64,000 nt of DNA from Candidatus Latescibacterota bacterium (GTDB taxonomy: Bacteria > Latescibacterota > UBA2968 > UBA8231). The number at the start of each line of letters is the position of its first letter. The first letter of the stretch is position 1. The notes under the pieces were generated by a model. It had not been told where the DNA came from, searched no databases, and saw only the letters and a list, made by a program, of their open reading frames with translations. The DNA is taken from positions 6,688,001-6,752,000 of the forward strand of contig CBDETY010000003.1 in NCBI GenBank assembly GCA_965243025.1. The letters run 5' to 3'. Of the stretch, positions 7,227 to 51,261 are shown piece by piece. Position numbers and translations under genes: made by a program.

Positions 7227-8098
7227 TTCTGCGCATGTGCGGCACCGAAATGGAGATGGGGGGGAAGTACCTGGGTGAGCTGCGCGAGACCCGCCGATCC
7301 CCGGACGATCCCGGTGCTCTCCGCGACCGCCTCGAAGAGGACGGCTACCTCCTGTTGCGCGGGCTTCACTCGCGGGACCGCGTGCTGGCCGCGAGACGCC
7401 GGATCCTCGAGGCGATGGATGCCGCCGGCAGGCTCGACCGCACCCGCCCGCTGATGGAAGGCGCGGTCGCCGACCCGCCCCTGGAAGGGGAGCCGTACGA
7501 TGCGCGGGGAGTCACGCGGTCCGTGGAGATGCTGGGACTGGTCGAGTCGCCGGAGATCATCGGTTTTTTCGAAGGGATTCTCGGCGGCGAGGTGTGCACC
7601 TTCGACTACAAGTGGGTGCGCGTGGTCCCTCCCGGGACCAACACCGCCGCCCACTACGACGTCGTCTACATGGGACTGGGTACGAGGGACCTGTTCACCT
7701 GCTGGACGCCGATCGGGGACGTCACCCCGGAGATGGGTTCCCTCGCCGTTCTCGCCGGCTCCCACAGGATCGAGAAAATCAGGGAGACCTACGGCCGCAT
7801 GGATGTCGACCGGGACCGGATCGAGGGCCTGTTCTCGAAAGACCCGCTCGAGATGGTCGACCGTTACGGAGGCCGCTGGCTGACCACCGGTTTCGCCCCG
7901 GGGGACGCTCTGATCTTCGGCATGTACACGATGCACGCCTCCCTCGACAACATCTCCGACAGGTTCCGCCTCTGTGCGGACACGCGCTACCAGCTGGCCT
8001 CCGAACCGGTGGACGGCCGCTTCATGGGAGGAGAACCGTTCATCCGGGAAACCCCGGTTCACACCATCGAGGAGATGCGGGAGAAATGGGGGGTGTGA
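7223..8098 (+). CDS. PhyH-family Fe(II)/2OG dioxygenase
   Basis: ATGA overlap with the TPR stop. Motifs DGYLLLR, HYD, CWTPIGD, TMH and RLCADTRYQ. Paralog of the PhyH domain at 4120..5082. Confidence 0.9.
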   Translation: MILRMCGTEMEMGGKYLGELRETRRSPDDPGALRDRLEEDGYLLLRGLHSRDRVLAARRRILEAMDAAGRLDRTRPLMEGAVADPPLEGEPYDARGVTRSVEMLGLVESPEIIGFFEGILGGEVCTFDYKWVRVVPPGTNTAAHYDVVYMGLGTRDLFTCWTPIGDVTPEMGSLAVLAGSHRIEKIRETYGRMDVDRDRIEGLFSKDPLEMVDRYGGRWLTTGFAPGDALIFGMYTMHASLDNISDRFRLCADTRYQLASEPVDGRFMGGEPFIRETPVHTIEEMREKWGV

Positions 8099-8208: not shown

Positions 8209-10308
8209 ATGCCGCGGGCGTTGCTGAAAGGAGTTCTCGCTGCGGCCCTGGTTCTGCCGGGGGGGGAATCCGCGGCGGAAGTCCAGGTCTGGCAATTCGG
8301 GGGAGGAAACGGCAGGCCCTGGGGTGAAATCACCGATCTCAACGTCCTCGTGGACCTCTCCGACCCGGGGGTGCTTCAGCCTCGCGAGCTCGACCCCGGC
8401 GAGAACCTGCTGCCGCATCTGCACCCCTGGCACGACGCCAGAAATCCGGAGGACATCCACTATCAGAACGGCGAGCCCCGCATCTGGCGCGGCGGCGAAC
8501 ACGATCGCTCCAAACTGCTCAAGATGCTGCCCCTGCTGTTCATCGACGGCGATTTCGAGACCGCCTCGGTGAAGCAGGATTTCGGGCCCGGCGGGAACAA
8601 GATGCACGACGAGTACTACACGATCGACGTCGGCGCACCCGTACCGGCCGAGCGTTTCGCCGTGTTTCCCCCGGAGGGAATCGACCACGTCACCGGCGAG
8701 CCGTACGGGAACTTCACCCCGCGGCAGTTCGAGTTGTCCGCGGGCAACGACGCCGAGGCCATCGCCCTGGAAGAGGCCACCGGGGCACCGGTTCCCGGCG
8801 GTTCGAACCTCTACACGACCTGGTGCGAGGATGCGGTCTCGGTCCGTCTCGAGTGCGACTACAAACCGCTCGAAGTGCTCCTGCACACCACCACGCAGAA
8901 TTTCGAAGACCTCATCGACGTCACCTTTCCCGTTCAGTACCTGCGCTTCTTCCGCATACGGCCGTTCCACGACGAGTACTGGAGAGGGCACACCGCCTAC
9001 GGGGTCGACTACCGGCTCGCGTACGCCGAGTTCGCGGTCTACGGACGCGGCTTCGTTCCCGAGGCCAGGTGGGAGTCGCAGGTGGTCGATCTCGGGGCGG
9101 AGTACAACTTCGGCCGCCTTGATTTCGGGACCAGCTCCCTGCGCAAGGGGGAGGACGGAGTTGTCGAGGAGATCGATGCCCGGACCGACGTCGAGATAGA
9201 GCTGAGAACCGGGGACGACGAAACCCCGGTGGCCTTCTTCGGCTTCAACAGCCGCGGGGCGCACGTCGAGGTCCCGGCGGAGGAGTACGAGGACCTCAGG
9301 TTCAACATCCGCCAGCCGCTGGCCAACGAACAGCATATCGGCTGGCGCGGCCCGGTCGGACACGACAACGCCAACTGGGGCTTCTGGTCGGCCCCGGTAC
9401 GGGAGTCGGGAGCAAGGCCGCGGGTCGGCAAGGCGCGCTACTTCCAGGTCCGGGTGAAGCTGCGGACCGATGAGCTGTGGGAGTTTGACCGCCTCGATTC
9501 CCTCGGGGTGGAAATCTCCCCGCTCCTGGCCCGCGAGGTCCTCGGCGAGGTCGCGGTGCTCGAGGACCTGCGCCCGGAGGGCAACCTCGCCAGGGTGCGG
9601 GCGGGGGAGATCGCGGAGTTCGCGTACGACATTGGCGCCGTGTTTCTCGGAGAGGAAGCCGGTTTCGACGCGGTGCGCCTGATGACCCCGGCGTCGGCGG
9701 AGTTTCTCGGCCTGGAGATGGGCGAGCCACCCGTGGAGGTGACTCCCGACGCCGTCTTCGAGGAGACCTCGGGTTTCACCGTGCACCTGCCGCGCCGGGT
9801 CGAAGCGGGGGATCCGCGGCTTCGCATCCGGCTGGCGAGCGCCCTGTACGGCGCTTCGGCAACCTTTGCCGGCGAGGTGTTCGAGCGCGCCGGAGAGGGG
9901 TTGCCCCAGGCGATCGAGCCTGGTGACGTCAGTGACGAGATGGGAACGAACCGGCTGCAGGTGGTGGCGATTGCGTCATCCCTGGGGAACGTCCTCGGGC
10001 GGGTCGAGATCGAGCCGCCGGTTTTCACGCCGCAGGGGGACGGGGTCAACGACCGGGTGCGCATTCTCTACTCGATGCTGCGCCTGCACGAGGGAGCCGG
10101 CGTCGAGGTCGGGGTGTACTCGCTGGGCGGCGAGCGGGTGCGAAGACTGGATTCCAGGACTCGGGGGGCGGGACTTCACGCCGCCGAGTGGGACGGACGC
10201 GACGCCCGCGGTGAGCCGGTGCCTCCGGGGCTCTACCTGGCACGGGTCGAGGTCGAGACAAGCCAGGGGAGTTTCGAGCGCCTGCTGAGGATCGCCGTGG
10301 CCTACTGA
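8209..10308 (+). CDS. Secreted protein with C-terminal FlgD-Ig-like domain, paralog 1
   Basis: Signal peptide ending ESAA. Motifs QPRELDP, EYYTIDVG, YGRGFVPEA, FTPQGDGVND, WDGRD..G..VPPGLY and terminal IAVAY*. Confidence 0.85.
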   Translation: MPRALLKGVLAAALVLPGGESAAEVQVWQFGGGNGRPWGEITDLNVLVDLSDPGVLQPRELDPGENLLPHLHPWHDARNPEDIHYQNGEPRIWRGGEHDRSKLLKMLPLLFIDGDFETASVKQDFGPGGNKMHDEYYTIDVGAPVPAERFAVFPPEGIDHVTGEPYGNFTPRQFELSAGNDAEAIALEEATGAPVPGGSNLYTTWCEDAVSVRLECDYKPLEVLLHTTTQNFEDLIDVTFPVQYLRFFRIRPFHDEYWRGHTAYGVDYRLAYAEFAVYGRGFVPEARWESQVVDLGAEYNFGRLDFGTSSLRKGEDGVVEEIDARTDVEIELRTGDDETPVAFFGFNSRGAHVEVPAEEYEDLRFNIRQPLANEQHIGWRGPVGHDNANWGFWSAPVRESGARPRVGKARYFQVRVKLRTDELWEFDRLDSLGVEISPLLAREVLGEVAVLEDLRPEGNLARVRAGEIAEFAYDIGAVFLGEEAGFDAVRLMTPASAEFLGLEMGEPPVEVTPDAVFEETSGFTVHLPRRVEAGDPRLRIRLASALYGASATFAGEVFERAGEGLPQAIEPGDVSDEMGTNRLQVVAIASSLGNVLGRVEIEPPVFTPQGDGVNDRVRILYSMLRLHEGAGVEVGVYSLGGERVRRLDSRTRGAGLHAAEWDGRDARGEPVPPGLYLARVEVETSQGSFERLLRIAVAY

Positions 10309-10334
10309 CGGCTCGGCGGCATGGTGGCCCGGTG

Positions 10335-12377
10335 ATGAACCGTCTGCTCACAGCGATAACGGTCGGCTGCGCCGCCGGCCTCGGGCAGGTTGCCGCCGAG
10401 GTGGAGGTCTGGCAGCTGGGCGGCGAGGGCGGCCGCCCCTGGAGCGGGTTCACCAACGAGAACGTCCTCGCCGACGACTTCACGAACCCCGCGGTTCTGC
10501 AGCCCCGCGAGCTCCTCCCGGACGTCAACATCCTGCCGCAGCTGGGACCGTGGCACACCGTCAAGCACCCCCCCGATTTCCGCTATCGCGACGGCCAGCC
10601 GCGCATCTGGAGGGGGATCAACTACGTCTTCAAGAGGCTGTTCTTCCCCGGCAAGTACGTCGACGGCGATCCCAACACCGCAGACGTGAGCAACGACCTC
10701 GCTCCCTGGAGGATCGACTGGGAGTTCTACACCATCGACGTCGGCGGGCGCATACCCGCCGAGCGTTTCCGCTTCTATCCCCCCGAGGGCATCGACCACG
10801 TCAGCGACGTGCCGTACCGCCCGAATTTCAATCCGGTCGGGTTCCAGCTGTCGGCGACCAACGACCCGGAGACGCTTTTCCTGGAGACCACCGCAACCAA
10901 CGAGGGGAAACCGGGCGACTACATGCCGCTCGACGCGGTGCTGTTCACGACGAGACAGCACTACGAGCCCACGGGCGTCATCGACATCGACTTTCCGCTG
11001 CAGTTCTTCCGTTTCTTTCGCATTCGCGCCTTTCCCGACGATCCCGAGATCTGCCCCCCGAGCCACGGCGGCAGGTGCATCCGCAGACTGGCCTGGGCGG
11101 AGATGGAGATCTACGGCCGCGGCTTCGTCCCCGAGGCGATGTGGGAATCGCAGGTGGTCGACCTCGGAGGGGATTTCAATTTCGGCCGGGTGATTTACGG
11201 GGTCGGGAAGTGGCGCCGGGACAGGCAGGGAGAGCTGGTCCCCGCCCCGGAAAGCACCGCCAAAGTCGAGGTCGAGCTGCGCACCGGCGGCGACGTCAAC
11301 CCGATAGCCTACTTCGGATTCAACAGCCGCGGGGGACACGTCCAGGTGACCCCGGAGGAGTACGAAGCCCTTAGAGTCGTGCGGCCGGAGCGCGACCCCG
11401 AGCTGATCGGCTGGCGTGGCCCGGTCACCCACGACAGCGAAAACTGGAGCTTCTGGTCCTCCCCGCTGCGGGAGTCCGGGGTGAGGCCGCGGACCGGGAA
11501 GGGCCGTTACTTCCAGCTCAGGGTGCGGCTGCAATCGGACGAGGTCTGGGAGTTCCTGCGGCTGGATTCACTGGCCGTGGAGATCTCGCCCCTGCTCGCC
11601 GACGAGGTGGTCGGTGAGATCGCCGCCCTGGACAACCTGCGTCCGGAGGGAAACCTTACCAGGGTGCAGGCCGGAGTCGCGACCGAGTTTCTCTACGACA
11701 TCGGCGCCGAGTTCTCCGGGGGCAAACCCGGTTTCGACGCCGTGCGGCTCATCACTCCTTCCGAGGCGGACTTTCTCGGCCTGGAGATGGGAGACCCGCT
11801 GGCCGAGGTGGAGCCCGAGGAGGTGATCGCCGAGCCGGGCGGCTTCACCGTGTACCTGCCGCGCAGGGTCAGCGATTCCGGACAGCCCCTCCGCATCCGG
11901 CTGGAGAGCGCGCTGTACGGCGCCTCCGGCACCTTTGCAGGGGAGGTTTTCGACCGCCGGAGCGGGGACCTGCCGCAGACAATCCAGTCAGGCGACGTCA
12001 GCGAGGAGATCGGAACGGACCGGCTGCAGGTAGTGGCGGTTTCCGGTTCGTTCGGCGGGGTCCTGGGACCGGTGGCGGTCGAGCCTCAGACCTTCACCCC
12101 GCAGGGGGACGGAATCAACGACAGGGTGCGGATAGGCTACACCATGCTGCGCGTCCAGGGGGAGGTCGAGGTCGAGGTCGACATTTTCGCCCTGGGAGGT
12201 GAACGTGTCTGGCGCCGGGACTCCCTGACCCAGAGGGCGGGCCGTCACGCCATCGAGTGGGACGGCCGCGACGGGCGGGATGAGCTGGTGGCCCCGGGGC
12301 TCTACCTCACCCGGATCAGGGTTTCGACCAGTGAAGGGGATTTCGAGCGCCAGCGACTGGTCGCCGTCGCCTATTGA
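10335..12377 (+). CDS. Secreted protein with C-terminal FlgD-Ig-like domain, paralog 2
   Basis: Signal peptide ending VAA. Colinear with paralog 1. FTPQGDGIND, WDGRDG and terminal VAVAY*. Confidence 0.85.
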   Translation: MNRLLTAITVGCAAGLGQVAAEVEVWQLGGEGGRPWSGFTNENVLADDFTNPAVLQPRELLPDVNILPQLGPWHTVKHPPDFRYRDGQPRIWRGINYVFKRLFFPGKYVDGDPNTADVSNDLAPWRIDWEFYTIDVGGRIPAERFRFYPPEGIDHVSDVPYRPNFNPVGFQLSATNDPETLFLETTATNEGKPGDYMPLDAVLFTTRQHYEPTGVIDIDFPLQFFRFFRIRAFPDDPEICPPSHGGRCIRRLAWAEMEIYGRGFVPEAMWESQVVDLGGDFNFGRVIYGVGKWRRDRQGELVPAPESTAKVEVELRTGGDVNPIAYFGFNSRGGHVQVTPEEYEALRVVRPERDPELIGWRGPVTHDSENWSFWSSPLRESGVRPRTGKGRYFQLRVRLQSDEVWEFLRLDSLAVEISPLLADEVVGEIAALDNLRPEGNLTRVQAGVATEFLYDIGAEFSGGKPGFDAVRLITPSEADFLGLEMGDPLAEVEPEEVIAEPGGFTVYLPRRVSDSGQPLRIRLESALYGASGTFAGEVFDRRSGDLPQTIQSGDVSEEIGTDRLQVVAVSGSFGGVLGPVAVEPQTFTPQGDGINDRVRIGYTMLRVQGEVEVEVDIFALGGERVWRRDSLTQRAGRHAIEWDGRDGRDELVAPGLYLTRIRVSTSEGDFERQRLVAVAY

Positions 12378-12406
12378 AGGCCGCCATCGCGCAAGGAGTC
12401 GACACC

Positions 12407-14458
12407 ATGAGAAAGATGCGGATGCCAATTGTCCTGTCCGGCGCGTTCGCCGCCCTCCTGCAGGCCGGGGATACCCACGCCAAGGTACAGGCCTGGCAGT
12501 TCGGCGGGGCAGGCGGCGAGGTCTGGAGCGAGTTCGCCGACTCGATCGGAATCGTCCTTGCGGACGACTTCACGAATCCGTCGGCCCTGCAGCCGCGGGA
12601 GCTCGACCCGGAAGTCAACATCGTGCCGCAACTGAGACCCTGGCACGGCTACAAATACCCGCAGGGACACCTGTACCGGGACGGCCAGCCGCGCATATGG
12701 CGGGGGGTCAACAACACCTGGAGGTGGCTGTTCTTTCCCCTGACTTTCGTCGATGGCGATCCCGGTACTGCCAATGTCTTCAATCCCCTGATCAGGACCA
12801 ATCAGGAGTACTACACCCTCGATCTCGGGGGGCGCGTACCCGCCGAGCGCTTCCGCTTCTATCCCCCCGACGGTATCGACCACATAACCGACGTGCCGTA
12901 CCGGCCGAATTACGTCCCCGTCGGCTTCGAGCTGTCGGCGACCAGCGATGCGGAATGGATCGCCGAGGAGGGCATCGCCGAGACCGGTTACAACCGCCTG
13001 GAACACCTGCTGTTCACCACCAGGCAGCACTACGAGCCCTCCGGCGTCGTCGACATCGAGTTCCCGCTGCAGTACCAGAGGTTCTTCCGCATCAGGGCGT
13101 TTCCGGAATCGGTCGATATCTGCATCCACAGCGGCATCCACGAGCACTGGAGAGGGGAGTGCATCCGCCGGCTCGCCTGGGCGGAGATGGAGGTCTACGG
13201 CCGCGGGTTCGTTCCGGAAGCCATCTGGGAATCCCGGGTGGTCGATCTCGAGGGGGAGTTCAGCTTCGGCCGGGTGCAGCTGTGGACGAGCAGGTGGCGG
13301 CGCAACGAGGAGGGGCTGCTCGAGCCGGCTCCGGGGAGTCCTGCCCGCGCCGAGGTGGAGCTGCGGACCGGAAACGACGAGGATCCGACCGCCTGGTTCG
13401 GGTACAACAGCCGCGGCGGGCACGTCCAGGTGACGGCGGAGGAGTTCGAGGGGCTGCGGGTCAACCGGCCGGAGATCGATCCCAAGGAGATCGGCTGGCG
13501 CGGACCGGTGGCCCACGACCACGAGAACTGGAGCTTCTGGTCGTCGCCGATCGCCGGTTCGGGATCGCGCCCGCGGGTCGGAACCGGCCGCTATTTCCAG
13601 ACCCGGGTCAGGCTGTACACCGACAGTGTGTGGGAGTTCGCGCGTCTCGACTCGCTGGCGATCGAGTATTCCCCGCTGCTTGCCGACCGCATAATCGCCG
13701 AGATCGCCGGCATCGACAACCTGCGACCCGACGGCAACCTCACCAAGGTCCTTGCCGGAGAGAGAACGGAGTTCGTCTACGACCTGGTCGCCGAATTTTC
13801 CGGGGAGAAACCCGGCTTCGACGCGGTGCGCCTGTTCACCCCCTCCGAGGCGGAGTTCCTCTCTCTGCAGATGGGGGATCCCCTGGCGGAGACAGCGCCG
13901 GACGAGGTGGTCGAGGAGGGAGCGGGATTCACCCTGTACCTGCCGAGAAGGGTGGCGGCGGGAGAGCCGCCGATACGAATCGAGCTGGCCACGGCGCTCT
14001 ACGGCGCCTCGGGAACGTTCGGCGGCGAGGTGTTCGAGCGCGGCGGCGAGGGGCTGCCGCAGACCATCGAGGCCGGGGACGTCAGCGACGCCGTCGGCAC
14101 CAACCGGATGCAGGTGGTCGCCTTCACCTCCTCGCTCGGGGGGGTCGTCGGAGCGGTGGAGGTCGATCCCCCGGTTTTCACGCCCCAGGGGGACGGCGTC
14201 AACGACCGCGTGCGGATCGGCTACTCGATGATGCGTGTGCAGGGTGAGGTCGAGGTCGAAGTCGGGTTGTTCTCGTTGAGCGGGGAGCGGGTCTGGCACC
14301 GGCGGTCGGGCACCGGGGCGGGGCGGCATTCGGTGTCATGGGAAGGCCTGGACGACCAGGGGCGCCCGGTGCCCCCGGGGCTGTACCTCGCCCGCGTGAA
14401 AGTCGCCACAAGCGAAGGGGACTTCGAGCGCCTGCAGCGCGTCGCCGTGGTCTATTAG
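12407..14458 (+). CDS. Secreted protein with C-terminal FlgD-Ig-like domain, paralog 3
   Basis: AAGGAG RBS with ATG at 12407. Signal peptide ending THA. Colinear with paralogs 1 and 2. Terminal VAVVY*. Confidence 0.85.
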   Translation: MRKMRMPIVLSGAFAALLQAGDTHAKVQAWQFGGAGGEVWSEFADSIGIVLADDFTNPSALQPRELDPEVNIVPQLRPWHGYKYPQGHLYRDGQPRIWRGVNNTWRWLFFPLTFVDGDPGTANVFNPLIRTNQEYYTLDLGGRVPAERFRFYPPDGIDHITDVPYRPNYVPVGFELSATSDAEWIAEEGIAETGYNRLEHLLFTTRQHYEPSGVVDIEFPLQYQRFFRIRAFPESVDICIHSGIHEHWRGECIRRLAWAEMEVYGRGFVPEAIWESRVVDLEGEFSFGRVQLWTSRWRRNEEGLLEPAPGSPARAEVELRTGNDEDPTAWFGYNSRGGHVQVTAEEFEGLRVNRPEIDPKEIGWRGPVAHDHENWSFWSSPIAGSGSRPRVGTGRYFQTRVRLYTDSVWEFARLDSLAIEYSPLLADRIIAEIAGIDNLRPDGNLTKVLAGERTEFVYDLVAEFSGEKPGFDAVRLFTPSEAEFLSLQMGDPLAETAPDEVVEEGAGFTLYLPRRVAAGEPPIRIELATALYGASGTFGGEVFERGGEGLPQTIEAGDVSDAVGTNRMQVVAFTSSLGGVVGAVEVDPPVFTPQGDGVNDRVRIGYSMMRVQGEVEVEVGLFSLSGERVWHRRSGTGAGRHSVSWEGLDDQGRPVPPGLYLARVKVATSEGDFERLQRVAVVY

Positions 14459-14580
14459 GAAGGTTTCAGGCGTTTCCGGCTTTCATCGACCCGGGTCGGT
14501 CTCGACCGATGGGGACCTGCTGGCCCGGAGAGGAACGGCAGCGTCCCTCCGGGGCGACGGCGCGGAAGGACGGATCGCCG

Positions 14581-16023
14581 TCACAACGGCTCCCCGGCGG
14601 CGGGGTTTCCCTCGATCACGTGCTGGATGCGGGCGTAGCGCTGCATGATGGCGAGGACCTTCTCCTCGAGCTCCCCGAGCAGGTTGGCCGGTGTGTCCTC
14701 CTGCTGGTTGGCCGAGTAGATCGTCGACTGGAGCAGGGCCGTGACCTCGGGCCAGGTGTAGTGCATGTACACCGGCGGGATTTCGTGGCGCAGCTCGGCG
14801 AACAGCTGCAGCAGCTTCTGTCCCCCCAGGTAGTCGAAGCGGTCGTTCAGCAGGCGCGGGTCCTGGTAGGCCTCGTGCAGGGCCGGCACCATCCTCGTCT
14901 TCAGCACGTCCTGCACCGCCAGCTCGGGGTTGAGGAACAGGTACTTGGCGAACTCCCAGGCCATCTCCTTGTTCTTCGCCTGCTTGGGAATCAGGTTGGT
15001 CGTGCCCCCGAGGGTCGAGGTGCGCCGGCCTCCCTCGCGCCACACCGGCATCGGCATCGCCCTCCACTTGCCCGCCTGTTCCGGAACGTTCTGACTGAGA
15101 AACCGCAAGAACCAGTCGGTGGCGAGAAAGGTCAGTATTTCGTCCCGCTTGACCGCACCCCAGAAGGAAGCGGTGTCGCGAATCGGATAGGCGACCCGGT
15201 GCTCGTTGAACATGTCGCTGTAGAACTCCAGCACCTGGCGCCCGGCGGGGCTGTTGATGGCGAAACGGCGGGGGCCGTCATCGCCGCGGGTATAAAGGGC
15301 CCCGTCGTTCTGCAGCAGGAGCTGGATGAATTCCCAGCCTGCGGAAAGTCGCAGGGCGATCCCGTAGCGCGGGTTTTCCGGATCGACCTCGCGGGGGCGG
15401 GACACTTCCCTGGCGACCCGCACCATGTCCTCCCAGGTCTCGACCACGGCAGGCAGGTCCGGGTAGCCGAGCGACTCGAGCAGGTCCCGGCGGTAGAGGA
15501 GCACGACCGGGCACAGGTCCTGGGGCATGCCGAAGACCTTGCCGCCGTACGAATAGGGGGCGAGACGGGCGGCGACCACCCGGTCGAGCCACGGTTCGTC
15601 CCCGAGCCGGACCGCCAGCTCCGAGAGATCCTCGAAAGGGACCTCCTCGGGGTCCCCCTTGAAAAAGCGGTTGACCGAGGTGATCTCGATGTCGACCATG
15701 TCCGGCGCGCCGTACCCGCGCACGAAGGCGGCGGTCAGCCGGTTCATCAGGGAACTGAACGAGAGCAGCTTGACTTCGACCCTCCATCCCGGATGCGCCG
15801 CTTCGAAGTCGACCTTGGCCTCTTCGTAGTCCTCGTAATGAACCCGTTCGAAAGTCCAGTAGGTCAGCGTCTGTCCCCCCTCCCTTCTCGCCAGGGTGAG
15901 GGTCGCGGCGGAAACCGCCAGCAGGAGGAACATGACGACCGGCGTACGGCCGAGGGGAAGGGAATCGAGGATTTGGGAGAGGCGGCTCATTTGTCTGGAG
16001 GCGGTGGTCAGAGATCCGTGCAT
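14581..16023 (-). CDS. Carbohydrate (CUT1) ABC transporter substrate-binding protein
   Basis: GGAGG RBS before ATG 16023. N-terminal hydrophobic anchor. Motifs GAPDMV, GKVFGMPQD..PVVLLYRRDL, TWED, GKWRAMPMP and AWEFAKYL. Confidence 0.85.
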   Translation of the reverse strand: MHGSLTTASRQMSRLSQILDSLPLGRTPVVMFLLLAVSAATLTLARREGGQTLTYWTFERVHYEDYEEAKVDFEAAHPGWRVEVKLLSFSSLMNRLTAAFVRGYGAPDMVDIEITSVNRFFKGDPEEVPFEDLSELAVRLGDEPWLDRVVAARLAPYSYGGKVFGMPQDLCPVVLLYRRDLLESLGYPDLPAVVETWEDMVRVAREVSRPREVDPENPRYGIALRLSAGWEFIQLLLQNDGALYTRGDDGPRRFAINSPAGRQVLEFYSDMFNEHRVAYPIRDTASFWGAVKRDEILTFLATDWFLRFLSQNVPEQAGKWRAMPMPVWREGGRRTSTLGGTTNLIPKQAKNKEMAWEFAKYLFLNPELAVQDVLKTRMVPALHEAYQDPRLLNDRFDYLGGQKLLQLFAELRHEIPPVYMHYTWPEVTALLQSTIYSANQQEDTPANLLGELEEKVLAIMQRYARIQHVIEGNPAAGEPL

Positions 16024-16082
16024 CGGGCCTCCGCAGATCAAACTGTCGAAAACCGACCCCCGCGGCAATCCGGAAAAGACCG

Positions 16083-17117: not shown

Positions 17118-17154
17118 GCTTCGGGGCGCGGCCCGTCTCCTGCGCGCGAAGGCG

Positions 17155-18945: not shown

Positions 18946-19099
18946 GAAGAAACGGGTCAACCGGAACTCCTTACATTGTGGCCGGCGTTGCCCGGTGCCC
19001 GGGCGCGAAATCAAGCGCCCGAATGCAGGCGGGATTTCGCGGGCAGGCACTGGCAACAGGTAGCGGGAGCTAACGATACACAATAATCGGGAACGGGGA

Positions 19100-20101
19100 G
19101 TGACACTCCGCTACATCACCGCGCGTTTCGGGCAGCTGTTGCTGATCGTGTTCCTGGCGGTCAGCGTCAACTTCGCGATCCCGCGGCTGATCCCGGGCGA
19201 CCCGATCGAATCGGCGCTGGCGACGAAAATGGCCATGACCGGAACCGAGGCCGGTGACATCGCCGCCATCGCCGCCGCATACCGCGCCAAGTTCGGACTC
19301 GATCAGCCGCTGTGGAGGCAGTACCTCAACTACTGGGGCGACATACTGCGCGGCGACCTCGGGGTGTCGCTCGTCAGCTTTCCACAGACGGTCTGGTCCA
19401 AAATCCGCGACGCGCTTCCCTGGACTCTCGGACTCCTCGTCACCTCCACCCTGATTGCTTTCGCGGTCGGCTCGCTGATGGGGGCTTTCCTCGCCTGGCC
19501 GAAGGCCCCGTCGTGGTTGAAGGCATTCGTGCCGCCGCTGATGCTGCTCTCCGCCGTACCCTACTACCTGCTCGCCGTCATCCTGGTGTTCCTGTTCGCC
19601 CTGACCTGGCCGCTGCTGCCGGCTTCGGGCGGGTTCAGCCCGATCTCGGTGCCGGGGTACGACTGGAGATCCGCCCTCGACATCCTCTCCCACTCGCTGC
19701 TTCCCGGGCTCTCGATCGCCCTCGGGGGGATCGGGTTCTGGGCCCTGGGAATGCGCGCCCTGATGGTTTCGGTTCTCGGTGAGGACTACATCACCTTCGC
19801 CGAGGCCAAGGGGCTGCCGGCGAGGCGCATCTTCTTTCGCTACGCCATGCGCAACGCCATCCTGCCGCAGGTCACCGCCCTGGCCCTGGCCATGGGTTTC
19901 GTGCTCTCCGGATCGGTGCTGGTCGAGGTGGTATTCAGCTACCCCGGCCTGGGAAAACTCCTGTTCGGGGCGATCGCGGGAAAGGACTACTTCGCGATCC
20001 AGGGGATCGTCCTGTTTCTCATCCTGACGCTCGCAGGGGCCCTGTTCGCGGTGGACCTCGTGTACCCGCTGATAGACCCCCGGATCAAGTACGGCGAATG
20101 A
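19100..20101 (+). CDS. Dpp/Opp-type ABC permease (DppB-like)
   Basis: PRLIPGDP, FGLDQPLWRQY, GDLGVS, EDYITFAEAKGL and VEVVFSYPGLG. Confidence 0.92.
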   Translation: MTLRYITARFGQLLLIVFLAVSVNFAIPRLIPGDPIESALATKMAMTGTEAGDIAAIAAAYRAKFGLDQPLWRQYLNYWGDILRGDLGVSLVSFPQTVWSKIRDALPWTLGLLVTSTLIAFAVGSLMGAFLAWPKAPSWLKAFVPPLMLLSAVPYYLLAVILVFLFALTWPLLPASGGFSPISVPGYDWRSALDILSHSLLPGLSIALGGIGFWALGMRALMVSVLGEDYITFAEAKGLPARRIFFRYAMRNAILPQVTALALAMGFVLSGSVLVEVVFSYPGLGKLLFGAIAGKDYFAIQGIVLFLILTLAGALFAVDLVYPLIDPRIKYGE

Positions 20102-20961
20102 ACGCGGCCGCCGCAGTCGGAAAACTGGTCCGCAGCCCGCGCATGAGCGGAAGCCTCGTGGCCGGCGCAGCGATCATGGGGACCGTCGTCGCCTTCAGCC
20201 TGCTCGGGCCGCTTCTCGTCGACCTGGAGAATGCGGACGTCGGGGCGGCGAACCCGAGGATGCCCCCCTCGGGGGAGCACTGGCTCGGCTCGGACGTGCA
20301 CGGCCGCGACCTGTTCACCACCCTTGTCCTCGGCACGCCCCAGACGTTGAAGATCGGCCTGATCGCCGGGGCGGCGGGGACCGGCCTCGGCCTCGTGCTG
20401 GGTCTGCTGGCCGGATACTTCGGCGGCCTCGTCGACAGCGCGATCCGCGTCGTCTCCGACTCTTTGCTGACGGTTCCCACGCTGGCGATTCTTATCGTCA
20501 TCGCCGCCAGCGTCAGCGAGATGTCGGTCGAGCTGATGGGCCTCACGGTGGCGGCCCTCGCCTGGATGTGGCCGACGCGCACGATCCGCTCGCAGCTTCT
20601 CAGCATCCGCGAGCGCCCCTACGTCGAGGTTGCCCGGGTCAACGGCCAGGGGGAGCTCGAGATCCTCTTCCGGGAGGTCATGCCCAACCTGCTTCCCTAC
20701 ATCGCCGCCAGCTTCGTCGGCGCCGTGGGCTCCGGCATCCTCGCCGCCATCGGCCTGGAGGCGCTCGGACTGGGGCCCAATCACCTGTTCACTCTCGGCA
20801 CCTCGATCTACTGGTCGCAGAAGTTCACCGCGGTCCTGCGCGGGCTCTGGTGGTGGTGGGCGCCCCCGATCGCGATGATCGCCCTGATCTTCGTCGGGCT
20901 GATGCTGCTTTCGGCCGGTCTCGACCGGATCGCCAATCCGCGCTTGCGCACGAGGACATGA
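20098..20961 (+). CDS. Dpp/Opp-type ABC permease (DppC-like)
   Basis: PPSGEHWLGSDVHGRD, ERPYVEVARVNG and NPRLR. ATGA overlap with the upstream gene. Confidence 0.92.
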   Translation: MNAAAAVGKLVRSPRMSGSLVAGAAIMGTVVAFSLLGPLLVDLENADVGAANPRMPPSGEHWLGSDVHGRDLFTTLVLGTPQTLKIGLIAGAAGTGLGLVLGLLAGYFGGLVDSAIRVVSDSLLTVPTLAILIVIAASVSEMSVELMGLTVAALAWMWPTRTIRSQLLSIRERPYVEVARVNGQGELEILFREVMPNLLPYIAASFVGAVGSGILAAIGLEALGLGPNHLFTLGTSIYWSQKFTAVLRGLWWWWAPPIAMIALIFVGLMLLSAGLDRIANPRLRTRT

Positions 20962-21986
20962 ACGGCCCCGGGACAGCCGCTGCGCGGCAGGTGCTGCGGG
21001 TCGCAGACCTCAGCGTCCACTACGATACCCCGGAGGGTCCGGTCAAGGCGGTGCAGGAGGTATCCTTCACCCTGAACGCCGGAGAGCGGCTCGCCCTGGT
21101 GGGAGAGTCGGGCTCGGGCAAGACGACCCTGGCGACGGCGCTGCTCAACCTGACCAGACCGCCGGGGCGGGTGGTATCCGGGGAGATCCTGCTCGACGGC
21201 CGCGGCCTCACCGGCATGGGCGAACGCGAGATGCGCGCCCTGCGGCTGTCGCAGATCGCGCTCATTCCCCAGGGTGCGATGAACGCCCTCAACCCGGTGA
21301 TGCGGATCGGGGAGCAGATCCTCGACGGCATCACCGCCCACGAGGGCAGGCAGGCCGGCGGGGAAGCCTCCGCCCGCGTCGATTCGCTGCTGCGCAGCGT
21401 CGGGCTGCACCCGGAAGTCGCCTCGCACTTTCCCCACGAGCTCAGCGGCGGCATGAAACAGCGGGTGGTGATCGCCATCGCCACCGCCCTGGAGCCGAAG
21501 GTGATCCTGGCGGACGAGCCCACGAGCGCCCTCGACGTCGTCGTGCAACGGCAGGTCGTCGAAACCCTGGTGGCGGTACAGGAGCGGATCGGGGCCGCGG
21601 TGATCCTGATCGGCCACGACATGGGGCTGGTGGCCCAGTTCGCCCAACGCGTCGGCCTGATGTACGCCGGCCGCCTGATCGAGATGGGAGGGGTGGAAGA
21701 GCTTTACCGGGAACCGCGCCACCCGTACACCCGCATGCTGATCGAAAGTCTGCCGAGCCTCGAATCGAAGCGGGAGTTCACGGGTATTCCCGGGCTCCCC
21801 CCGGAGCTGCTCGACCAGCCCCCCGGGTGCGCCTTTCGACCGCGCTGCCCGCACGCATTCGAGCCCTGCGGCGTCGAGACTCCGGCGTTCGCGGAGGTCG
21901 GACCGGGCCGCTCGGCCGCCTGCCACCTGAACCCCGGCAGCGGCCCGCTGCCGGCCCCCCCGGCCTCCGGGGAGGGAAAGCGGTGA
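20958..21986 (+). CDS. Dpp/Opp-type ABC ATP-binding protein (DppD-like)
   Basis: Walker A GESGSGKT, FPHELSGGMKQR, ADEPTSALD, HPYT and a C-terminal Cys motif. Confidence 0.93.
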   Translation: MNGPGTAAARQVLRVADLSVHYDTPEGPVKAVQEVSFTLNAGERLALVGESGSGKTTLATALLNLTRPPGRVVSGEILLDGRGLTGMGEREMRALRLSQIALIPQGAMNALNPVMRIGEQILDGITAHEGRQAGGEASARVDSLLRSVGLHPEVASHFPHELSGGMKQRVVIAIATALEPKVILADEPTSALDVVVQRQVVETLVAVQERIGAAVILIGHDMGLVAQFAQRVGLMYAGRLIEMGGVEELYREPRHPYTRMLIESLPSLESKREFTGIPGLPPELLDQPPGCAFRPRCPHAFEPCGVETPAFAEVGPGRSAACHLNPGSGPLPAPPASGEGKR

Positions 21987-23017
21987 CCCCGCTGCTCGAG
22001 CTGCGGAACGTCGCCAAGCGGTACGGCGGCGGCCTTCTGGGGGGCAGGGAGACGACCGCGGTCGAGGACCTCTCGCTGAAGATCGCCGCGGCCCCCCCCT
22101 CCATTACCGCGGTCGCCGGGGAGAGCGGCAGCGGCAAGACCACGCTGGCGCGCCTCCTGCTCGGGTTCGTCCGGCCGAGCCGCGGCGAGGTCCTCTACCG
22201 GGGCCGCGACCTCGCCGGGATGACGAAGCAGGAGCGGCGCCGGTTCCGCCGCGAGGTGCAGCCGATCTTCCAGGATCCGTACGAGGTGTTCAACCCGTTC
22301 TACCGGGTCGATCACGTGCTCGAGACGCCGGTGGCGCGCTTCGGCCTGGCCGCCTCGCGGCAGGAGGCCCGCCGGCTTGTTGGCGAGGCCCTCGAGATGG
22401 TGGGGTTGCGTCCCGCCGAAACGCTGGGGCGGTTTCCCCACCAGCTCAGCGGCGGCCAGCGGCAGCGGATAATGGTGGCGCGCGCGCTGCTGCTCGAGCC
22501 GCAACTGATTCTCGCCGACGAGCCGGTGTCGATGGTGGACGCCTCCCTGCGCGCCACGATCCTCGGCAGCCTGCGCAAGCTCAACCGCGAGCTCGGAATT
22601 TCGGTCGTCTACATCACCCACGACCTCACCACCGCCTACCAGATCAGCGAGAACATCGCCGTGATGTACCGGGGCAGCATCGTCGAGGCGGGCCCGGTCG
22701 AGCGCGTCATCGGCGACCCCCTGCACCCGTACACGCAGCTGCTCGTCGGTTCGATTCCGGTGCCCGACCCTGGCAGGCGCTGGTCGGACAGCACCCTCGA
22801 GCTCCGCAAGGAGGAGGGATCGGAGCTCGCCGGGGCCGGGCGTTCGAGCGCCGGTTGCCGTTTCGCCGATCGCTGCCCGGCGGCGATGGAGGCCTGCTGG
22901 AACGAGGTCCCTCCTCATTACCGCACCAAGGGCCGCGCCGCGGCCTGCTTTCTCTTTCGCGACGATCCCGTTCTGGAAAGCGGCGTTGCCAGCCTGTTCG
23001 AGGCCTCCGATGGGTAA
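21983..23017 (+). CDS. Dpp/Opp-type ABC ATP-binding protein (DppF-like)
   Basis: GTGA overlap. GESGSGKT, FPHQLSGGQRQR, ADEPVSMVD, HPYTQLL and GCRFADRCP. Confidence 0.93.
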   Translation: MTPLLELRNVAKRYGGGLLGGRETTAVEDLSLKIAAAPPSITAVAGESGSGKTTLARLLLGFVRPSRGEVLYRGRDLAGMTKQERRRFRREVQPIFQDPYEVFNPFYRVDHVLETPVARFGLAASRQEARRLVGEALEMVGLRPAETLGRFPHQLSGGQRQRIMVARALLLEPQLILADEPVSMVDASLRATILGSLRKLNRELGISVVYITHDLTTAYQISENIAVMYRGSIVEAGPVERVIGDPLHPYTQLLVGSIPVPDPGRRWSDSTLELRKEEGSELAGAGRSSAGCRFADRCPAAMEACWNEVPPHYRTKGRAAACFLFRDDPVLESGVASLFEASDG

Positions 23018-23897
23018 GCGGAACTCCGGCGGCGGCCCCCGCATGCAGCTGGCCCCCTACGTTTTCATTTCTCCATTCTACATCCTGTATGCCACCTTCA
23101 TGCTCTACCCGCTGGTCTCGTCTATGTGGACGAGCCTCCACTTCCAGCGCACCCTGGAATCGAGCATTTACGTCGGCCTCTTCAACTACGAGGTGCTGCT
23201 GACCGATCCGGCGTTCTGGCAGGCCCTGTTCAACACCTTCTGCTTCACCTTCGGAATACTCGTCGTCCAGATCCCCGTGGCCCTGGCGATGGCGCTGGTC
23301 GTCAACGCCGCCTTCCTGCGGGGGCGCAACTTCTTCCGCCTCTGCTTCTTCTCGCCGACCCTCGTCGGGGGGGTGTTCGTCGCCATCATCTTCCGCCAGG
23401 TCTACCACGCCGACAACGGCCTGCTGGCGATGCTGTTCGGCCGCGAGATCCCCTGGCTCGAGCACAAGTACCTGATCATGCCTTCGATCATCCTGACCAG
23501 TGTCTGGAAATCGGCCGGGTTCATAATGCTGTATTTCCTCGCCGGGCTTCAGGCGATCCGGCGAGAGCTGTACGAAGCCGCGCAGGTCGACGGGGCCGGC
23601 TGGTGGCAGAGCCTGTTCAACGTCACCCTGCCCTCCCTGAGACCGATCCTCATTTTCGTCATCGTCATCTCGGTGATCGACTCGCTGCAGCTGTTCGACA
23701 TCCCCTACGTGCTCCTGACGCCGCCCGAGGGGCCGGGAGGTTACGGCCGCACCATCGTGATGTACCTCTACCAGAAGTTCGAGACCTCCGAGCTGGGGCT
23801 GGCCTGCGCAACGGGGTGGAGCCTTGCGGTCCTGATCTTCCTCGTTACCCTGGCGCAGCTGCGCCTGCTCGGCGCCTTCCGGGAGGAGCGGCAATGA
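23010..23897 (+). CDS. Carbohydrate ABC permease (MalF/UgpA-like)
   Basis: APYVFISPF, YVGLFNY and the EAA loop LYEAAQVDGA..VTLPSLRP. Confidence 0.92.
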   Translation: MGKRNSGGGPRMQLAPYVFISPFYILYATFMLYPLVSSMWTSLHFQRTLESSIYVGLFNYEVLLTDPAFWQALFNTFCFTFGILVVQIPVALAMALVVNAAFLRGRNFFRLCFFSPTLVGGVFVAIIFRQVYHADNGLLAMLFGREIPWLEHKYLIMPSIILTSVWKSAGFIMLYFLAGLQAIRRELYEAAQVDGAGWWQSLFNVTLPSLRPILIFVIVISVIDSLQLFDIPYVLLTPPEGPGGYGRTIVMYLYQKFETSELGLACATGWSLAVLIFLVTLAQLRLLGAFREERQ

Positions 23898-24760
23898 ACC
23901 GGTCCGGGCTCCTCGAGACCGCGGCTTACGCCCTGCTTGCCTGTATCGCCCTGGCGATCATCACGCCTCTCGCATGGACGTTCATGTCCTCCTTCAGGCC
24001 GATAGGGGACATCTTCTCGCAGCGGCTCCCGGCTTCCTTCGACGAGTTCACGCTGGAAAACTACCGGGCCCTGTTCGAGCCGCTGGTGCGCGAGATCGCC
24101 GGCAAGGACAAGATCTTTCCACCGATTCCCTACGCGCGCTACTTCCTCAACAGCGTTTTCGTATCGACGGCGTTCACCCTGCTCGCCCTGTTCTTCGGCT
24201 CCCTGGGAGGCTTCGGTTTCTCGAAGTACGAGTTCCGGGGGAAGCGGGGGCTGTTCCTCGTGCTCATGGGCTCGATGATGATCCCCTTCCACGTCGGCCT
24301 GATCCCCCTCTACAGCCTGATCGCGCGCTTCGGATGGATCGACACCTACCAGGCGGTCATCATCCCCGGGTCGGCGAGCGCCTTCTCCATCTTTCTGATG
24401 CGCCAGTACATGGCCGGGGTCCCGGACAGCCTGATCGACTCGGCCCGCATCGACGGGAGCTCGGAGTTCGGCATCTACTGGCGCGTGGCCCTGCCGCTGC
24501 TCAGGCCGGCTCTCGGAGCCCTTACCATCCTGCTTTTCGTCGCCGGGTGGAACAACTTCCTGTGGCCCTCGATGGTGCTGCTCGACGAGCAGCGGTACAC
24601 CCTTCCGGTCGGGCTCAACTCACTGAGGGGCACGTACTGGGAGGAATACGGGGTCCTGCTCGCCGGCACCGCCCTCGCGGTCGTGCCGGTGATCCTTCTG
24701 TTCCTGTGGATGCAGAGGGAGTTCGTCGAGGGTATTACCCTGGGGGCGGTGAAAGAGTAG
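23894..24760 (+). CDS. Carbohydrate ABC permease (MalG/UgpE-like)
   Basis: TLENY, YFLNS, LIDSARIDGS, WNNFLWP and QREFVEGITLGAVK. Confidence 0.92.
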   Translation: MNRSGLLETAAYALLACIALAIITPLAWTFMSSFRPIGDIFSQRLPASFDEFTLENYRALFEPLVREIAGKDKIFPPIPYARYFLNSVFVSTAFTLLALFFGSLGGFGFSKYEFRGKRGLFLVLMGSMMIPFHVGLIPLYSLIARFGWIDTYQAVIIPGSASAFSIFLMRQYMAGVPDSLIDSARIDGSSEFGIYWRVALPLLRPALGALTILLFVAGWNNFLWPSMVLLDEQRYTLPVGLNSLRGTYWEEYGVLLAGTALAVVPVILLFLWMQREFVEGITLGAVKE

Positions 24761-24837
24761 GATCCGGTGCAGCTTCTTGACCGGCAGCCGGGTCGTGGCG
24801 ACCGTTGGGATGTTGCCGCTTGAGAATCGAGGTGCCC

Positions 24838-26931
24838 ATGAGACATTGCCAGACCTTCCGCGCGTTCGCCGCCGCGGCAATCTGCCTCCACCTCACCCTC
24901 GGGGCCGCCGGGAGCCAGGTGGATGTCTGGCAGTTCGGGGGAGCCGGGGGCTCGGCATGGGGGGACTTCACCCGCCTGAACGTCCTCGCCGACGACTTCA
25001 GCGATCCGCGCAGGCTCCAGCCCCGCGAGCTCGATCCCGAGGTGAACCTGCTGCCGCAGCTGTCCCCCTGGCATGGCCTGAAGCAGCCGATCGAGTTCGG
25101 TTACATGGAAGGCCAGCCGCGTATCTGGCGGGGCGTCAACTACCGCAAGGCGCGGCTCTTCTTTCCCCTCGACTTCATCGACGGGGATGTCGAAACCTAC
25201 GTGGTGAACCGCGACTCCCCCTGGATCTGGTGGGAATACTACACGATCGACGTCGGGGCGCGGATACCGGCCGAGCGCTTCCGCTTCTACCCGCCCGACG
25301 GCATCGATCACATCACCGATCAGCCCTACCGCCCGGGTTACACGCCCCAGCACTTCGAGCTGACGGCGAGCAACAACGCCGAGGCAATAGCGCGGGAAGG
25401 GGAGGATTTCGGAACCCCGGAGCGGCCCACCGGGGTCAGCGAGATTCACGACGTCGCGCCGAGCCTCGACGACTACCGTCCCCTCGAAACGCTGCTGTTC
25501 GAGTCCGCGCAGTACTTCTCCCCGGACGGGATCGTAAACCTCACCTTCCCCCTCGGCCACTACCGCTTCTTCCGCCTGCGCTCCTTCCCGACCGAGGAAA
25601 ACTGTTTCGAAGGCTGGACAGAGAGAAGCTGTTTCGAGACGATCGGGTTCGCGGAGATGGAGATTTACGGCCGCGGCTTCGTGCCGGAGGCTACCTGGCT
25701 GTCGACGGTGGTGGACCTCGGGGAGAGCGTCAACTTCGGAAGAGTGGTGTTCTCCGGAACCCGGCTGCGCCGCGAAAACGGCGGCCTGGTTCCCGCCCCG
25801 GAGGCCCCGGCGGTCGTCGAGGTCGAGGTCCGGGTCGGCGACGACGACACCCCGGTGGCGTATTACGGGTACAACAAGCGGGGGGCCCCGACCGAAGTCA
25901 CCAGGGACGAATACGAGAAACTCAGGGTAAACCGCCCCGAGCTCGATCCCCGCATCATCGGCTGGCGCGGGCCCCTCGGACACGACAGCGAGCGCTGGAG
26001 CTTCTGGTCGGCGCCCGCCAGGGAATCGGGAATCCGTCCCGTGGCGCGCAAGGGCCGCTATTTCCAGCTGCGGGTGCGGCTGAAGACGGACCGACTCTGG
26101 GAGTTCGTCCGCCTCGACTCGCTGGGGGTCGAGTTTTCTCCGCTGCTCGCCGACCGCGTCGTGGGGGAAATAGCTGCGGCCGACGACCTGCATCCGGCGG
26201 GAAACCTGACCAAGGTGCGGGCCGGGGAAACGGGGGAGTTCGCCTATGATCTCAGGGCGGAGTTCTCCGGCGAAGACAGGACGGGCTTCGACGCAGTGCG
26301 CGTTACCGCTCCGGCCGAGGCGGAGTTCCGCGGCCTCGAGATGGGAGATCCGCCCGCGGCAGTCGAGCCCGACGGGGTCATCCCCGAGGGTTCGGGCTTC
26401 AGTCTGCTGCTCCCGCGTCCGGTAACCGAAGGGGAGCCGCCCCTCCGCATCCGCCTGGCAACCGCCCTGTACGGGGCCTCGGGAACCTTCGGCGGTGAAG
26501 TCTACCAGCGCGACGTCGACATCCTGCCGCAGCCGATAGAGGCGGGGGACGCCAGCGAGGCCGTGGGGACGAACCGGCTGCAGCTGGTGGCCTACCCGGC
26601 TTCGCTCGGAGAGGTGCTCGGCAGCGTCGCCGTCGAGCCCCGGATCCTGACGCCGCAGGGTGACGGCGTCAACGACAAGGTGCTGATCTCCTACTCGATG
26701 CTGCGGATTCAGGAGGGAGCCGACGTCGAGGTGACCGTCTACGGGCTGAGCGGGGAGCCGGTCCGGACCATGCGGTCCCCGCAGCAGGTCGCCGGCCGGC
26801 ACTCCGTCGAGTGGGACGGCCGCGACGACCGCGGCCGCCTCGTGCCTCCGGGCACTTACGTCGCCAGCATCAGGGTAGCGACCAGCGAAGGGGATTTCGG
26901 GAGCATCCACCCGGTGGCGGTCGCCTACTGA
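24838..26931 (+). CDS. Secreted protein with C-terminal FlgD-Ig-like domain, paralog 4
   Basis: GAGG RBS with ATG 24838. Signal peptide followed by QVDVWQFGG. Colinear with paralogs 1-3. LTPQGDGVND and terminal VAVAY*. Confidence 0.85.
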   Translation: MRHCQTFRAFAAAAICLHLTLGAAGSQVDVWQFGGAGGSAWGDFTRLNVLADDFSDPRRLQPRELDPEVNLLPQLSPWHGLKQPIEFGYMEGQPRIWRGVNYRKARLFFPLDFIDGDVETYVVNRDSPWIWWEYYTIDVGARIPAERFRFYPPDGIDHITDQPYRPGYTPQHFELTASNNAEAIAREGEDFGTPERPTGVSEIHDVAPSLDDYRPLETLLFESAQYFSPDGIVNLTFPLGHYRFFRLRSFPTEENCFEGWTERSCFETIGFAEMEIYGRGFVPEATWLSTVVDLGESVNFGRVVFSGTRLRRENGGLVPAPEAPAVVEVEVRVGDDDTPVAYYGYNKRGAPTEVTRDEYEKLRVNRPELDPRIIGWRGPLGHDSERWSFWSAPARESGIRPVARKGRYFQLRVRLKTDRLWEFVRLDSLGVEFSPLLADRVVGEIAAADDLHPAGNLTKVRAGETGEFAYDLRAEFSGEDRTGFDAVRVTAPAEAEFRGLEMGDPPAAVEPDGVIPEGSGFSLLLPRPVTEGEPPLRIRLATALYGASGTFGGEVYQRDVDILPQPIEAGDASEAVGTNRLQLVAYPASLGEVLGSVAVEPRILTPQGDGVNDKVLISYSMLRIQEGADVEVTVYGLSGEPVRTMRSPQQVAGRHSVEWDGRDDRGRLVPPGTYVASIRVATSEGDFGSIHPVAVAY

Positions 26932-28852: not shown

Positions 28853-28865
28853 TTCCCGAGGCGCC

Positions 28866-51249: not shown

Positions 51250-51261
51250 GTACGGGGGGCG

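Follow-up and report, generated by a model that had tools for sequence, protein, structure and literature searches.

Four plus-strand genes encoding paralogous proteins of ~680 residues (par1 to par4) lie in the stretch of DNA analysed here, a window of 64,000 nt from the 6.8 Mb genome of Candidatus Latescibacterota bacterium (GCA_965243025.1, contig CBDETY010000003.1, positions 6,688,001–6,752,000). We propose that their products are probably non-catalytic proteins that are displayed on the cell surface and bind glycans through specificity loops, each paralog having its own fixed set. The genes have a high third-position G+C content and share 55–64% pairwise identity at the protein level. The first three form a tandem array preceded by a TPR gene and a PhyH-type dioxygenase gene, and par4 lies 10 kb further on, after ATP-binding cassette (ABC) transporter genes and immediately before two genes for DUF6785+DUF6784 membrane proteins. 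The start of par1 is the ATG at 8209, where its signal peptide begins, and the long open reading frame (ORF) from 7594 is an upstream read-through. Two further close paralogs elsewhere in the genome (C3:6424318 and C3:3479301) bring the number of close lineages to six, and orthologues of all six, with 74–98% identity, are found in public protein sets. Coordinates of all features are compiled in Table 1.

The original prediction, made from the sequence alone, described similar frameworks with sharply different N-terminal loops in the four paralogs, and this description agrees with a scan of mean pairwise identity in 10-residue steps across the six lineages (66 steps, with a gap against a residue counted as a mismatch). 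The five lowest values are confined to three segments of par2, residues 122–131 (hypervariable segment HV1, 0.15), 182–201 (HV2, 0.23 and 0.13) and 232–251 (HV3, 0.16 and 0.24), and all values outside these segments range from 0.39, the next lowest, up to 0.91. Variation among the six lineages is thus sharply local and well outside the scatter of the remaining protein. All four loop strings quoted in the prediction are present in the translations where it had located them, with HV3 lying between FFR(I/L)R and AE(M/F)xxYGRGF. The segments following PRIWRG and DGD had been called variable as well; the latter is HV1, and the former proved only moderately variable (0.40–0.50). The β4-β5 loop, PPEGIDH..PYRPN in par2, ranks with the most conserved portions of the N-terminal (N) domain, with P150, G153, P161 and P164 near-invariant in 89 homologues.

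In the structural model, residues 62–265 of par2 adopt a divergent CBM32/discoidin jelly roll of the galactose-binding-domain-like type, the kind of β-sandwich that had been proposed from the sequence. The AlphaFold2 model of par2, calculated with an 89-sequence alignment as input, has a predicted local distance difference test score (pLDDT) of 90.3 and a predicted template modelling score (pTM) of 0.80, and residues 22–267 modelled alone reach a pLDDT of 89.7. Structure comparison with VIA superimposed residues 62–265 on 4a42_B (Z 12.8) with a root mean square deviation (rmsd) of 2.2–2.3 Å over 123 of 126 residues; other matches include 4zxe_A (Z 12.4–12.5), 2v72_A (Z 11.7–11.8) and 2w1q_A (Z 9.8–10.3, 20–21% identity). 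Altogether 91 chains matched the N domain at Z of at least 8, and the 50 matches listed are CBM32 modules, F5/8-C domains and other folds that we take to be galactose-binding-like. The top Foldseek matches are likewise mostly CBM32 modules, with E-values from 2e-6. A profile built from 32 N domains gave a weak match to 2w1q (E 0.0095) in which the DGDxxT motif is aligned. In this motif, which would mark a structural metal site, D111 is invariant and G112, D113 and T116 occur in at least 90% of the 89 homologues, in alignment with DGDDNT of 2w1q. Sub-threshold Pfam matches to F5_F8_type_C (PF00754) were seen in 7 of 32 members (best E 6.6e-4) and to F5_F8_type_C_2 in 8 of 32, and distant paralogs of ~800 residues pass the F5_F8_type_C threshold (34.0–40.3 bits against 28.2). 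ESM features, which serve as a lead only, place F5/8-C clusters at 0.91 and 0.89.

According to excerpts of PMC3313936, the ligand site of CBM32 modules is formed by loops at the edge of the sandwich, and structural calcium is common in the family. The randomised binding loops of nanoCLAMPs, likened to antibody complementarity-determining regions in excerpts of PMC10404686, are residues 817–820, 838–844 and 931–935 of a module spanning 807–946, the last of them immediately before the final strand. The loops of par2 were placed by alignment to 2w1q together with the strand order counted from the par2 DSSP string. In the HMMER alignment, loop 817–820 falls within the segment after PRIWRG and loop 838–844 within HV1, which is exactly the stretch where nanoCLAMPs 7rg7 and 7rga depart from wild-type 2w1q. 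VIA aligns the end of the last strand (946) with par2 residue 263, so that loop 931–935 would map to the C-terminal end of HV3. From the strand order, the segment after PRIWRG, HV1, the β4-β5 loop, the β6-β7 loop and HV3 should all be found at the same end of the sandwich, which would put PPEGIDH..PYRPN on the face shared by HV1 and HV3. The layout that emerges is one of a conserved central loop with paralog-specific loops on its flanks, and the jelly roll would act as a binding head whose ligand face comprises that loop, the segment after PRIWRG, HV1 and HV3. The claim that the variable loops are apical and share one face therefore appears to stand for these three segments and probably not for HV2, the expanded β5-β6 hairpin.

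The only cysteines of the mature par1–4 proteins are one pair each, within a variable loop. As had been noted, the pair encloses 7, 12 and 8 residues in par2, par3 and par4, and in par1 it is found in another loop, HV2 (WCEDAVSVRLEC, 8761–8874), rather than HV3. In every one of the six lineages except par1, the pair is found at equivalent positions at the base of HV3 (7, 12, 8, 29 and 29 residues enclosed). Among the 89 homologues, HV3 ranges from 10 to 42 residues in length, and the 17 HV3 loops that contain cysteine always have an even number, two or four. This pattern suggests that a disulfide probably closes the base of HV3 in the five lineages other than par1. Several HV3 loops with no other resemblance (par1, par3 and par5) contain a semi-conserved Trp, as WRG or GW, 5–6 residues ahead of the second Cys, and His-rich strings are also present, such as CIHSGIHEHWRGEC in par3; these features might serve as an aromatic platform for sugar or as a site for metal.

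The loops are kept in orthologues. In 10 of 13 orthologue pairs, the conservation of HV1–HV3 equals or exceeds that of the framework, with 63 of 63 loop positions identical between par4 and P0015 (framework 98%) and 68 of 69 between par1 and P0017 (framework 97%). Since each loop is conserved in this way, continuing antibody-like diversification is not supported; the antibody analogy of the original prediction is apt for the architecture, in which the same loops vary that engineers randomise on the same scaffold, and not for the process. The prediction had also looked to an excess of non-synonymous change. Between paralogs the synonymous divergence (dS) is 0.66–1.11, near saturation, and the ratio of non-synonymous to synonymous change (dN/dS) is below 1, at ~0.3–0.5 in the N domain and 0.2–0.4 in the rest, these being domain-wide values with the HV loops unalignable. 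The observations fit a history in which the loops were remodelled after duplication and have since been held by purifying selection, and with the loops so held each paralog would have its own fixed specificity.

A diversity-generating retroelement (DGR) target, whose absence had been predicted, was ruled out. Comparison of the N-domain DNA with the genome gave no template or near-identical repeat, the only matches being the paralogs themselves (65–72% identity where the match is long and as much as 94% in short pieces), and the sole RVT_1 match in the genome, C3:1032098, is ~5.6 Mb away, with no reverse transcriptase nearby. Targeted hypermutation of the loops at the present time, by a DGR or some other antibody-like process, would explain the look of hypervariable loops on a constant framework, the single point in its favour; with no template repeat, a reverse transcriptase gene at such a distance and orthologue loops that are identical or nearly so, we consider it extremely improbable.

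The N-termini of par1–4, read by eye, run from basic residues through a hydrophobic stretch to small residues preceding EVQVW, EVEVW, KVQAW and SQVDVW, respectively, and are predicted to be Sec signal peptides, which would deliver the proteins to the periplasm. At the other end, the modelled immunoglobulin (Ig)-like domain is a sorting domain of the type recognised by the type IX secretion system (T9SS): residues 576–681 of par2 superimpose on the C-terminal domain of PorU (Z 13.1, rmsd 2.1 Å, 98 residues aligned) and on PorZ (Z 10.5). This FlgD_ig/CHU_C domain is the only one that Pfam detects in par1–4, with FlgD_ig above its cut-off of 27 bits in par1 and par4 (34.7 and 38.7 bits); TIGR04183 was absent at E≤0.01 among the matches for family proteins. 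A search of the genome for the T9SS components SprA, PorU, PorV and GldM found SprA and two PorU genes above the curated cut-offs. Excerpts of the review PMC11285876 place Gemmatimonadetes among the phyla that possibly have a T9SS. The fold and the genomic machinery together point to T9SS export to the surface, with the C-terminal domain routing the protein through the system for release or for attachment to the outer surface.

If the proteins are indeed exposed in this manner, the loops might instead be the outward parts of an abundant surface coat, with paralog diversity serving to evade phages, predators or host recognition. Predicted surface exposure as T9SS cargo, the presence of ~79 paralogs per genome and the restriction of variation to loops are all in keeping with such a coat. 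Contrary to what an arms race would produce, however, orthologue loops are conserved at 74–98% framework identity, a conserved loop lies between the variable ones according to the strand order, and there is no sign of switching or recombination machinery apart from one contig joint, which makes the coat an improbable explanation. The joint is found in a sponge metagenome contig (run X1, depth 102) that connects par1 position 9503 to par2 position 11580, skipping 2076 bases, or one gene period, with 7 other letters in between and only 30 letters on the shorter side. A strain with a hybrid of the two paralogs, or an error of assembly, may account for it. The public sequencing runs in which the stretch is found, kept as contigs of low depth that show 928 differences, come from 12 studies of sponge, coral and marine metagenomes.

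The middle module of par2 matches no PDB sequence at E≤10 and nothing meaningful in Pfam. Its fold matches are generic, to the non-catalytic fibronectin type III (Fn3)/Ig domains of ScpA and Vpr and to YcnI. The module is strongly conserved, with a GWRGP..HD..NWSFWS signature and invariant D321, D368, W372 and R410, is common to 83 proteins and matches no known family, features that would suit an enzyme in which these residues are catalytic and the N domain merely targets the protein. However, the model shows only a β-sandwich and Ig-like domains in this region, the fold matches are non-catalytic and no catalytic family was matched, leaving enzymatic function with little probability.

The four paralogs singled out in the original prediction are real and belong to a much larger set. 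Hidden Markov model (HMM) searches of the genome detected the N domain in 25 proteins, the middle module in 83 and the C-terminal domain in 157, and of the 81 proteins that have at least 80 residues upstream of the middle module, an iterated profile showed 79 to carry a homologous N domain, with E-values that are relative to this small protein set and with some drift possible. We therefore put the family at about 79 members in this genome. Across these 79 paralogs, HV1 varies from 9 to 50 residues, the β4-β5 loop from 7 to 34 and HV3 from 7 to 42, and the other-pole turns are fixed at 11±0.4 and 5±0.2 residues. The HV2 hairpin (the equivalent of window positions 10875–10934) is an insertion hot spot of 12–278 residues, and in about a tenth of the paralogs it holds a whole extra domain of ~220–250 residues. 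The repertoire looks like a hard-wired set of different binders, fixed in the genome over ~79 genes with each member conserved. In three giant proteins (P0159, P0254 and P0266; 2414–2865 aa), the DGD...EFYTxDxG core of the N-domain profile is partially matched 8–36 times.

At E≤1e-10 the whole protein is found in each of 40 other genomes sampled from this taxonomic family and in none of 29, 13 and 13 genomes from three other families of the phylum. At E≤1e-20 the N domain was absent from the genomes of 20 relatives, two of the same genus included, and at E≤0.001 the N-domain profile retrieved only 292 clusters among 1.84 billion representative proteins. Named carriers of the family are Latescibacterota, Gemmatimonadota and one Handelsmanbacteria metagenome-assembled genome (MAG), with single records labelled Alphaproteobacteria, Planctomycetota and uncultured bacterium; members are also present in groundwater and lake MAGs. 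A literature search combining FlgD_ig, T9SS and Gemmatimonad returned nothing on the family among the matches listed.

From the gene context, the ligands would most likely be glycans, either of a host matrix or of dissolved polysaccharide, and the bound material would probably feed the neighbouring envelope and transport cassette. Binding of protein or matrix ligands, such as sponge extracellular matrix or other cells, by adhesins or recognition proteins using the same loops is a real alternative to glycans, and one to which we give a small share of the probability. Discoidin domains can bind collagen. The VIA matches listed include neuropilin b1 and the N-terminal domains of netrin and laminin, and the organism or close strains of it occur in sponge metagenomes of several studies. 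Excerpts of PMC10404686 describe nanomolar protein binders obtained by randomising the three loops on this same fold. On the other hand, the family also occurs in the groundwater and lake MAGs, the neighbouring genes are of carbohydrate, sugar-acid, transporter and sulfatase types, and the top fold matches are carbohydrate-binding modules.

Genes of the family recur within a cassette that includes a PhyH dioxygenase, DUF6785/DUF6784 proteins, one to three family members, the ~800-aa F5_F8_type_C relative, a ~885-aa secreted protein without a family match, a ~270-aa ORF, a SurA-like peptidyl-prolyl isomerase (PPIase), and FG-GAP/ASPIC and TPR proteins. Other neighbours, comprising glycosidase-like, sulfatase, sugar-acid and transporter genes, differ from locus to locus. 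A second full cassette occupies positions 38619–57697 of the window, and its gene order recurs in L016, L054, L013 and G000 C3:1110028–1131037. PhyH-type Fe(II)/2-oxoglutarate dioxygenase genes also recur beside family genes in L016, L030, L098, L099 and L104, and three stand in a row near par6. Linkage was assessed for the 79 family genes against 500 random trials. The ~885-aa gene lies within 10 kb of 45 of the 79 (random mean 9.0, maximum 23) and is the strongest genomic partner of the family; the SurA-like gene lies within 10 kb of 21 (mean 2.8, maximum 12), and linkage to DUF6785 is above chance at a distance of 20 kb, within which 44 of the 79 have such a gene (mean 19.7, maximum 37). 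At 25 of 73 family loci in other genomes a DUF6785 gene was found, often directly upstream.

The ~885-aa proteins number ~40 copies in the genome, contain Asp/Asn-rich stretches and are 60–66% identical to copies in other MAGs. Comparison with Pfam, NCBIfam and PDB sequences gave no match for them; among named ESM clusters the nearest, again a lead only, is a TonB-like β-barrel at 0.89, and none of the proteins coincides with the 27 TonB-receptor matches in the genome. The DUF6785+DUF6784 proteins are present in ~49 copies, and a literature search on DUF6785, DUF6784 and PF20581 found no paper. Tentatively, the paralogs could be interchangeable specificity subunits of an undescribed T9SS-dependent system for surface capture and uptake, a counterpart of the polysaccharide utilisation loci of Bacteroidota. 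Such a system might be assembled from the CBM32-like binders, the ~885-aa envelope protein, the DUF6785/DUF6784 inner-membrane proteins, the SurA-like chaperone and the FG-GAP/ASPIC proteins, and its cassette might be repeated ~30 times per genome, each copy with its own loop set, in Gemmatimonadota and Latescibacterota.

Table 1. Positions in the window of the par genes, their domains and loops, and neighbouring genes.
Feature	Position	Strand	Remarks
par1 gene	8209..10308	+	~699 aa from ATG 8209; predicted signal peptide, CBM32-like N domain, two β domains, T9SS-type C-terminal domain
par2 gene	10332..12377	+	681 aa, P0002; protein used for modelling
par3 gene	12407..14458	+	683 aa from ATG 12407
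par4 gene	24838..26931	+	697 aa from ATG 24838; two DUF6785 genes in line downstream
par2 CBM32/discoidin-like jelly-roll core, residues 62–265	10515..11126	+	from structure comparison
Jelly-roll core equivalents	par1 8392-9054; par3 12605-13210; par4 25033-25680	+
par2 middle module, residues 266–575	11127..12056	+	two β domains
par2 T9SS-type C-terminal domain (predicted)	12057..12374	+	equivalents par1 9988-10305, par3 14141-14455, par4 26611-26928
par2 moderately variable segment after PRIWRG	10617..10661	+	aligned with CBM32 loop 817–820; equivalents par1 8494-8544, par3 12707-12751, par4 25135-25179
HV1	par1 8575..8613; par2 10692..10724; par3 12782..12808; par4 25210..25236	+	after DGDxxT; equivalent of CBM32 loop 838–844
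par1 HV2	8761..8874	+	β5-β6 insertion; Cys pair WCEDAVSVRLEC
par2 HV2	10875..10934	+	pLDDT 72–73, lowest of the domain
par3 HV2	12959..13003	+	shortest
par4 HV2	25387..25488	+
par1 HV3	8962..9015	+	without Cys; HDEYWRGH...
par2 HV3	11028..11087	+	Cys241-Cys249, 7 residues enclosed
par3 HV3	13097..13171	+	Cys pair, 12 residues enclosed
par4 HV3	25582..25641	+	Cys pair, 8 residues enclosed
par2 conserved β4-β5 loop PPEGIDH..PYRPN	10779..10838	+	identity 0.72–0.90
PhyH-type dioxygenase gene	7223..8098 (start 7223-7256)	+	directly upstream of par1; recurrent neighbour
Two DUF6785+DUF6784 polytopic membrane protein genes	26945..30776	+	directly after par4, 13-base gaps
Second cassette, FG-GAP/ASPIC	38619-42287	+
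Second cassette, FG-GAP/ASPIC	42383-44713	-
Second cassette, further family member	44695-46788	+	35% identical to par2
Second cassette, further family member	46798-49209	+	F5_F8_type_C class
Second cassette, DUF6785/6784	49309-51249
Second cassette, 313-aa ORF	51328-52269	-	no assigned family
Second cassette, 884-aa protein	52523-55177		no family match
Second cassette, 272-aa ORF	55174-55992
Second cassette, SurA-like PPIase	55712-57697

Several observations weigh against glycan binding at the surface through paralog-specific loops. Neither par1–4 at E≤0.1 nor the par2 N domain at E≤10 matched Pfam F5_F8_type_C, and for this reason membership of the CBM32/F5_F8_type_C group by sequence fails. 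By strand order HV2 probably lies at the opposite pole, close to the DGD motif and to where the chain leaves for the next domain, and yet this loop belongs to the three segments that vary most and holds the par1 Cys pair. The HV loops fall below the framework in 3 of the 13 orthologue pairs (par3/P0006, 88 against 96%; par3/P0009, 69 against 80%; par6/P0010, 60 against 76%). As regards export, FlgD_ig is under its cut-off in par2 and par3 and CHU_C in all four proteins, the PorV-like gene beside one of the PorU genes scores below the cut-off, and GldM was not found in the genome, by a search that was silent in every control genome too. Within 10 kb, DUF6785 genes are found beside no more family genes than random trials can give (20 of 79, against a mean of 10.6 and a maximum of 26), and the neighbours of family genes are heterogeneous. 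Discoidin folds also bind proteins and lipids.

The analysis offers an initial account, in structure and in function, of a large family annotated as 'hypothetical' in databases. It would represent a natural counterpart of an engineered antibody-mimetic scaffold, in which the same CBM32 loops have been remodelled between paralogs, with apparent disulfide staples. If the link to the envelope proteins is true, it hints at how sponge-associated and aquatic bacteria without SusD capture polymers, and the family would also be a supply of ready-made, stable binding domains of differing specificity.

Like CBM32 and F5/8 type C domains, the par N domain has a jelly-roll fold (Z 10–12.8), a DGDxxT motif aligned with that of 2w1q and variation in the binding-site loops. 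Unlike them, it is too divergent for Pfam in par1–4, is ~100 residues longer owing to an N-terminal extension and the HV2 insertion, and has Cys pairs in its loops; it is joined to no catalytic module and is followed by the two-domain middle module and then the T9SS domain. The nanoCLAMPs, engineered from CBM32-2 of C. perfringens NagH, share the scaffold (Z 9.4–10.3, 20–21% identity), and their three randomised loops match three variable segments, two by alignment and the third, apparently, by the alignment end points. They are man-made libraries selected in vitro, whereas the ~79 genes here are fixed and conserved in orthologues. SusE and SusF of Bacteroidota are lipoproteins that act with SusC and SusD. 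Like these glycan-binding proteins, the par proteins are predicted to be non-catalytic, multi-domain β-sandwich surface proteins encoded near uptake genes, and SusE-like BT2857 is among the fold matches (Z 10.4); in contrast, their anchor would be a T9SS domain, SusD was not found in the genome and the linked envelope proteins are of uncharacterised families. With T9SS cargo they share the Ig-like C-terminal domain, matches to FlgD_ig and CHU_C, and a genome encoding SprA and PorU, but CHU_C is below its cut-off, TIGR04183 is unmatched at E≤0.01, and secretion in this phylum is predicted from genes. DGR variable proteins and immunoglobulins likewise display hypervariable loops on a constant β framework; the par loops differ in being stable between orthologues, with no reverse transcriptase or template repeat nearby, and in owing their diversity to gene duplication. 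The fold type is thus already known, and what is new is an unannotated variant of the CBM32-type module, its unusual expansion and a set of uncharacterised partner genes.

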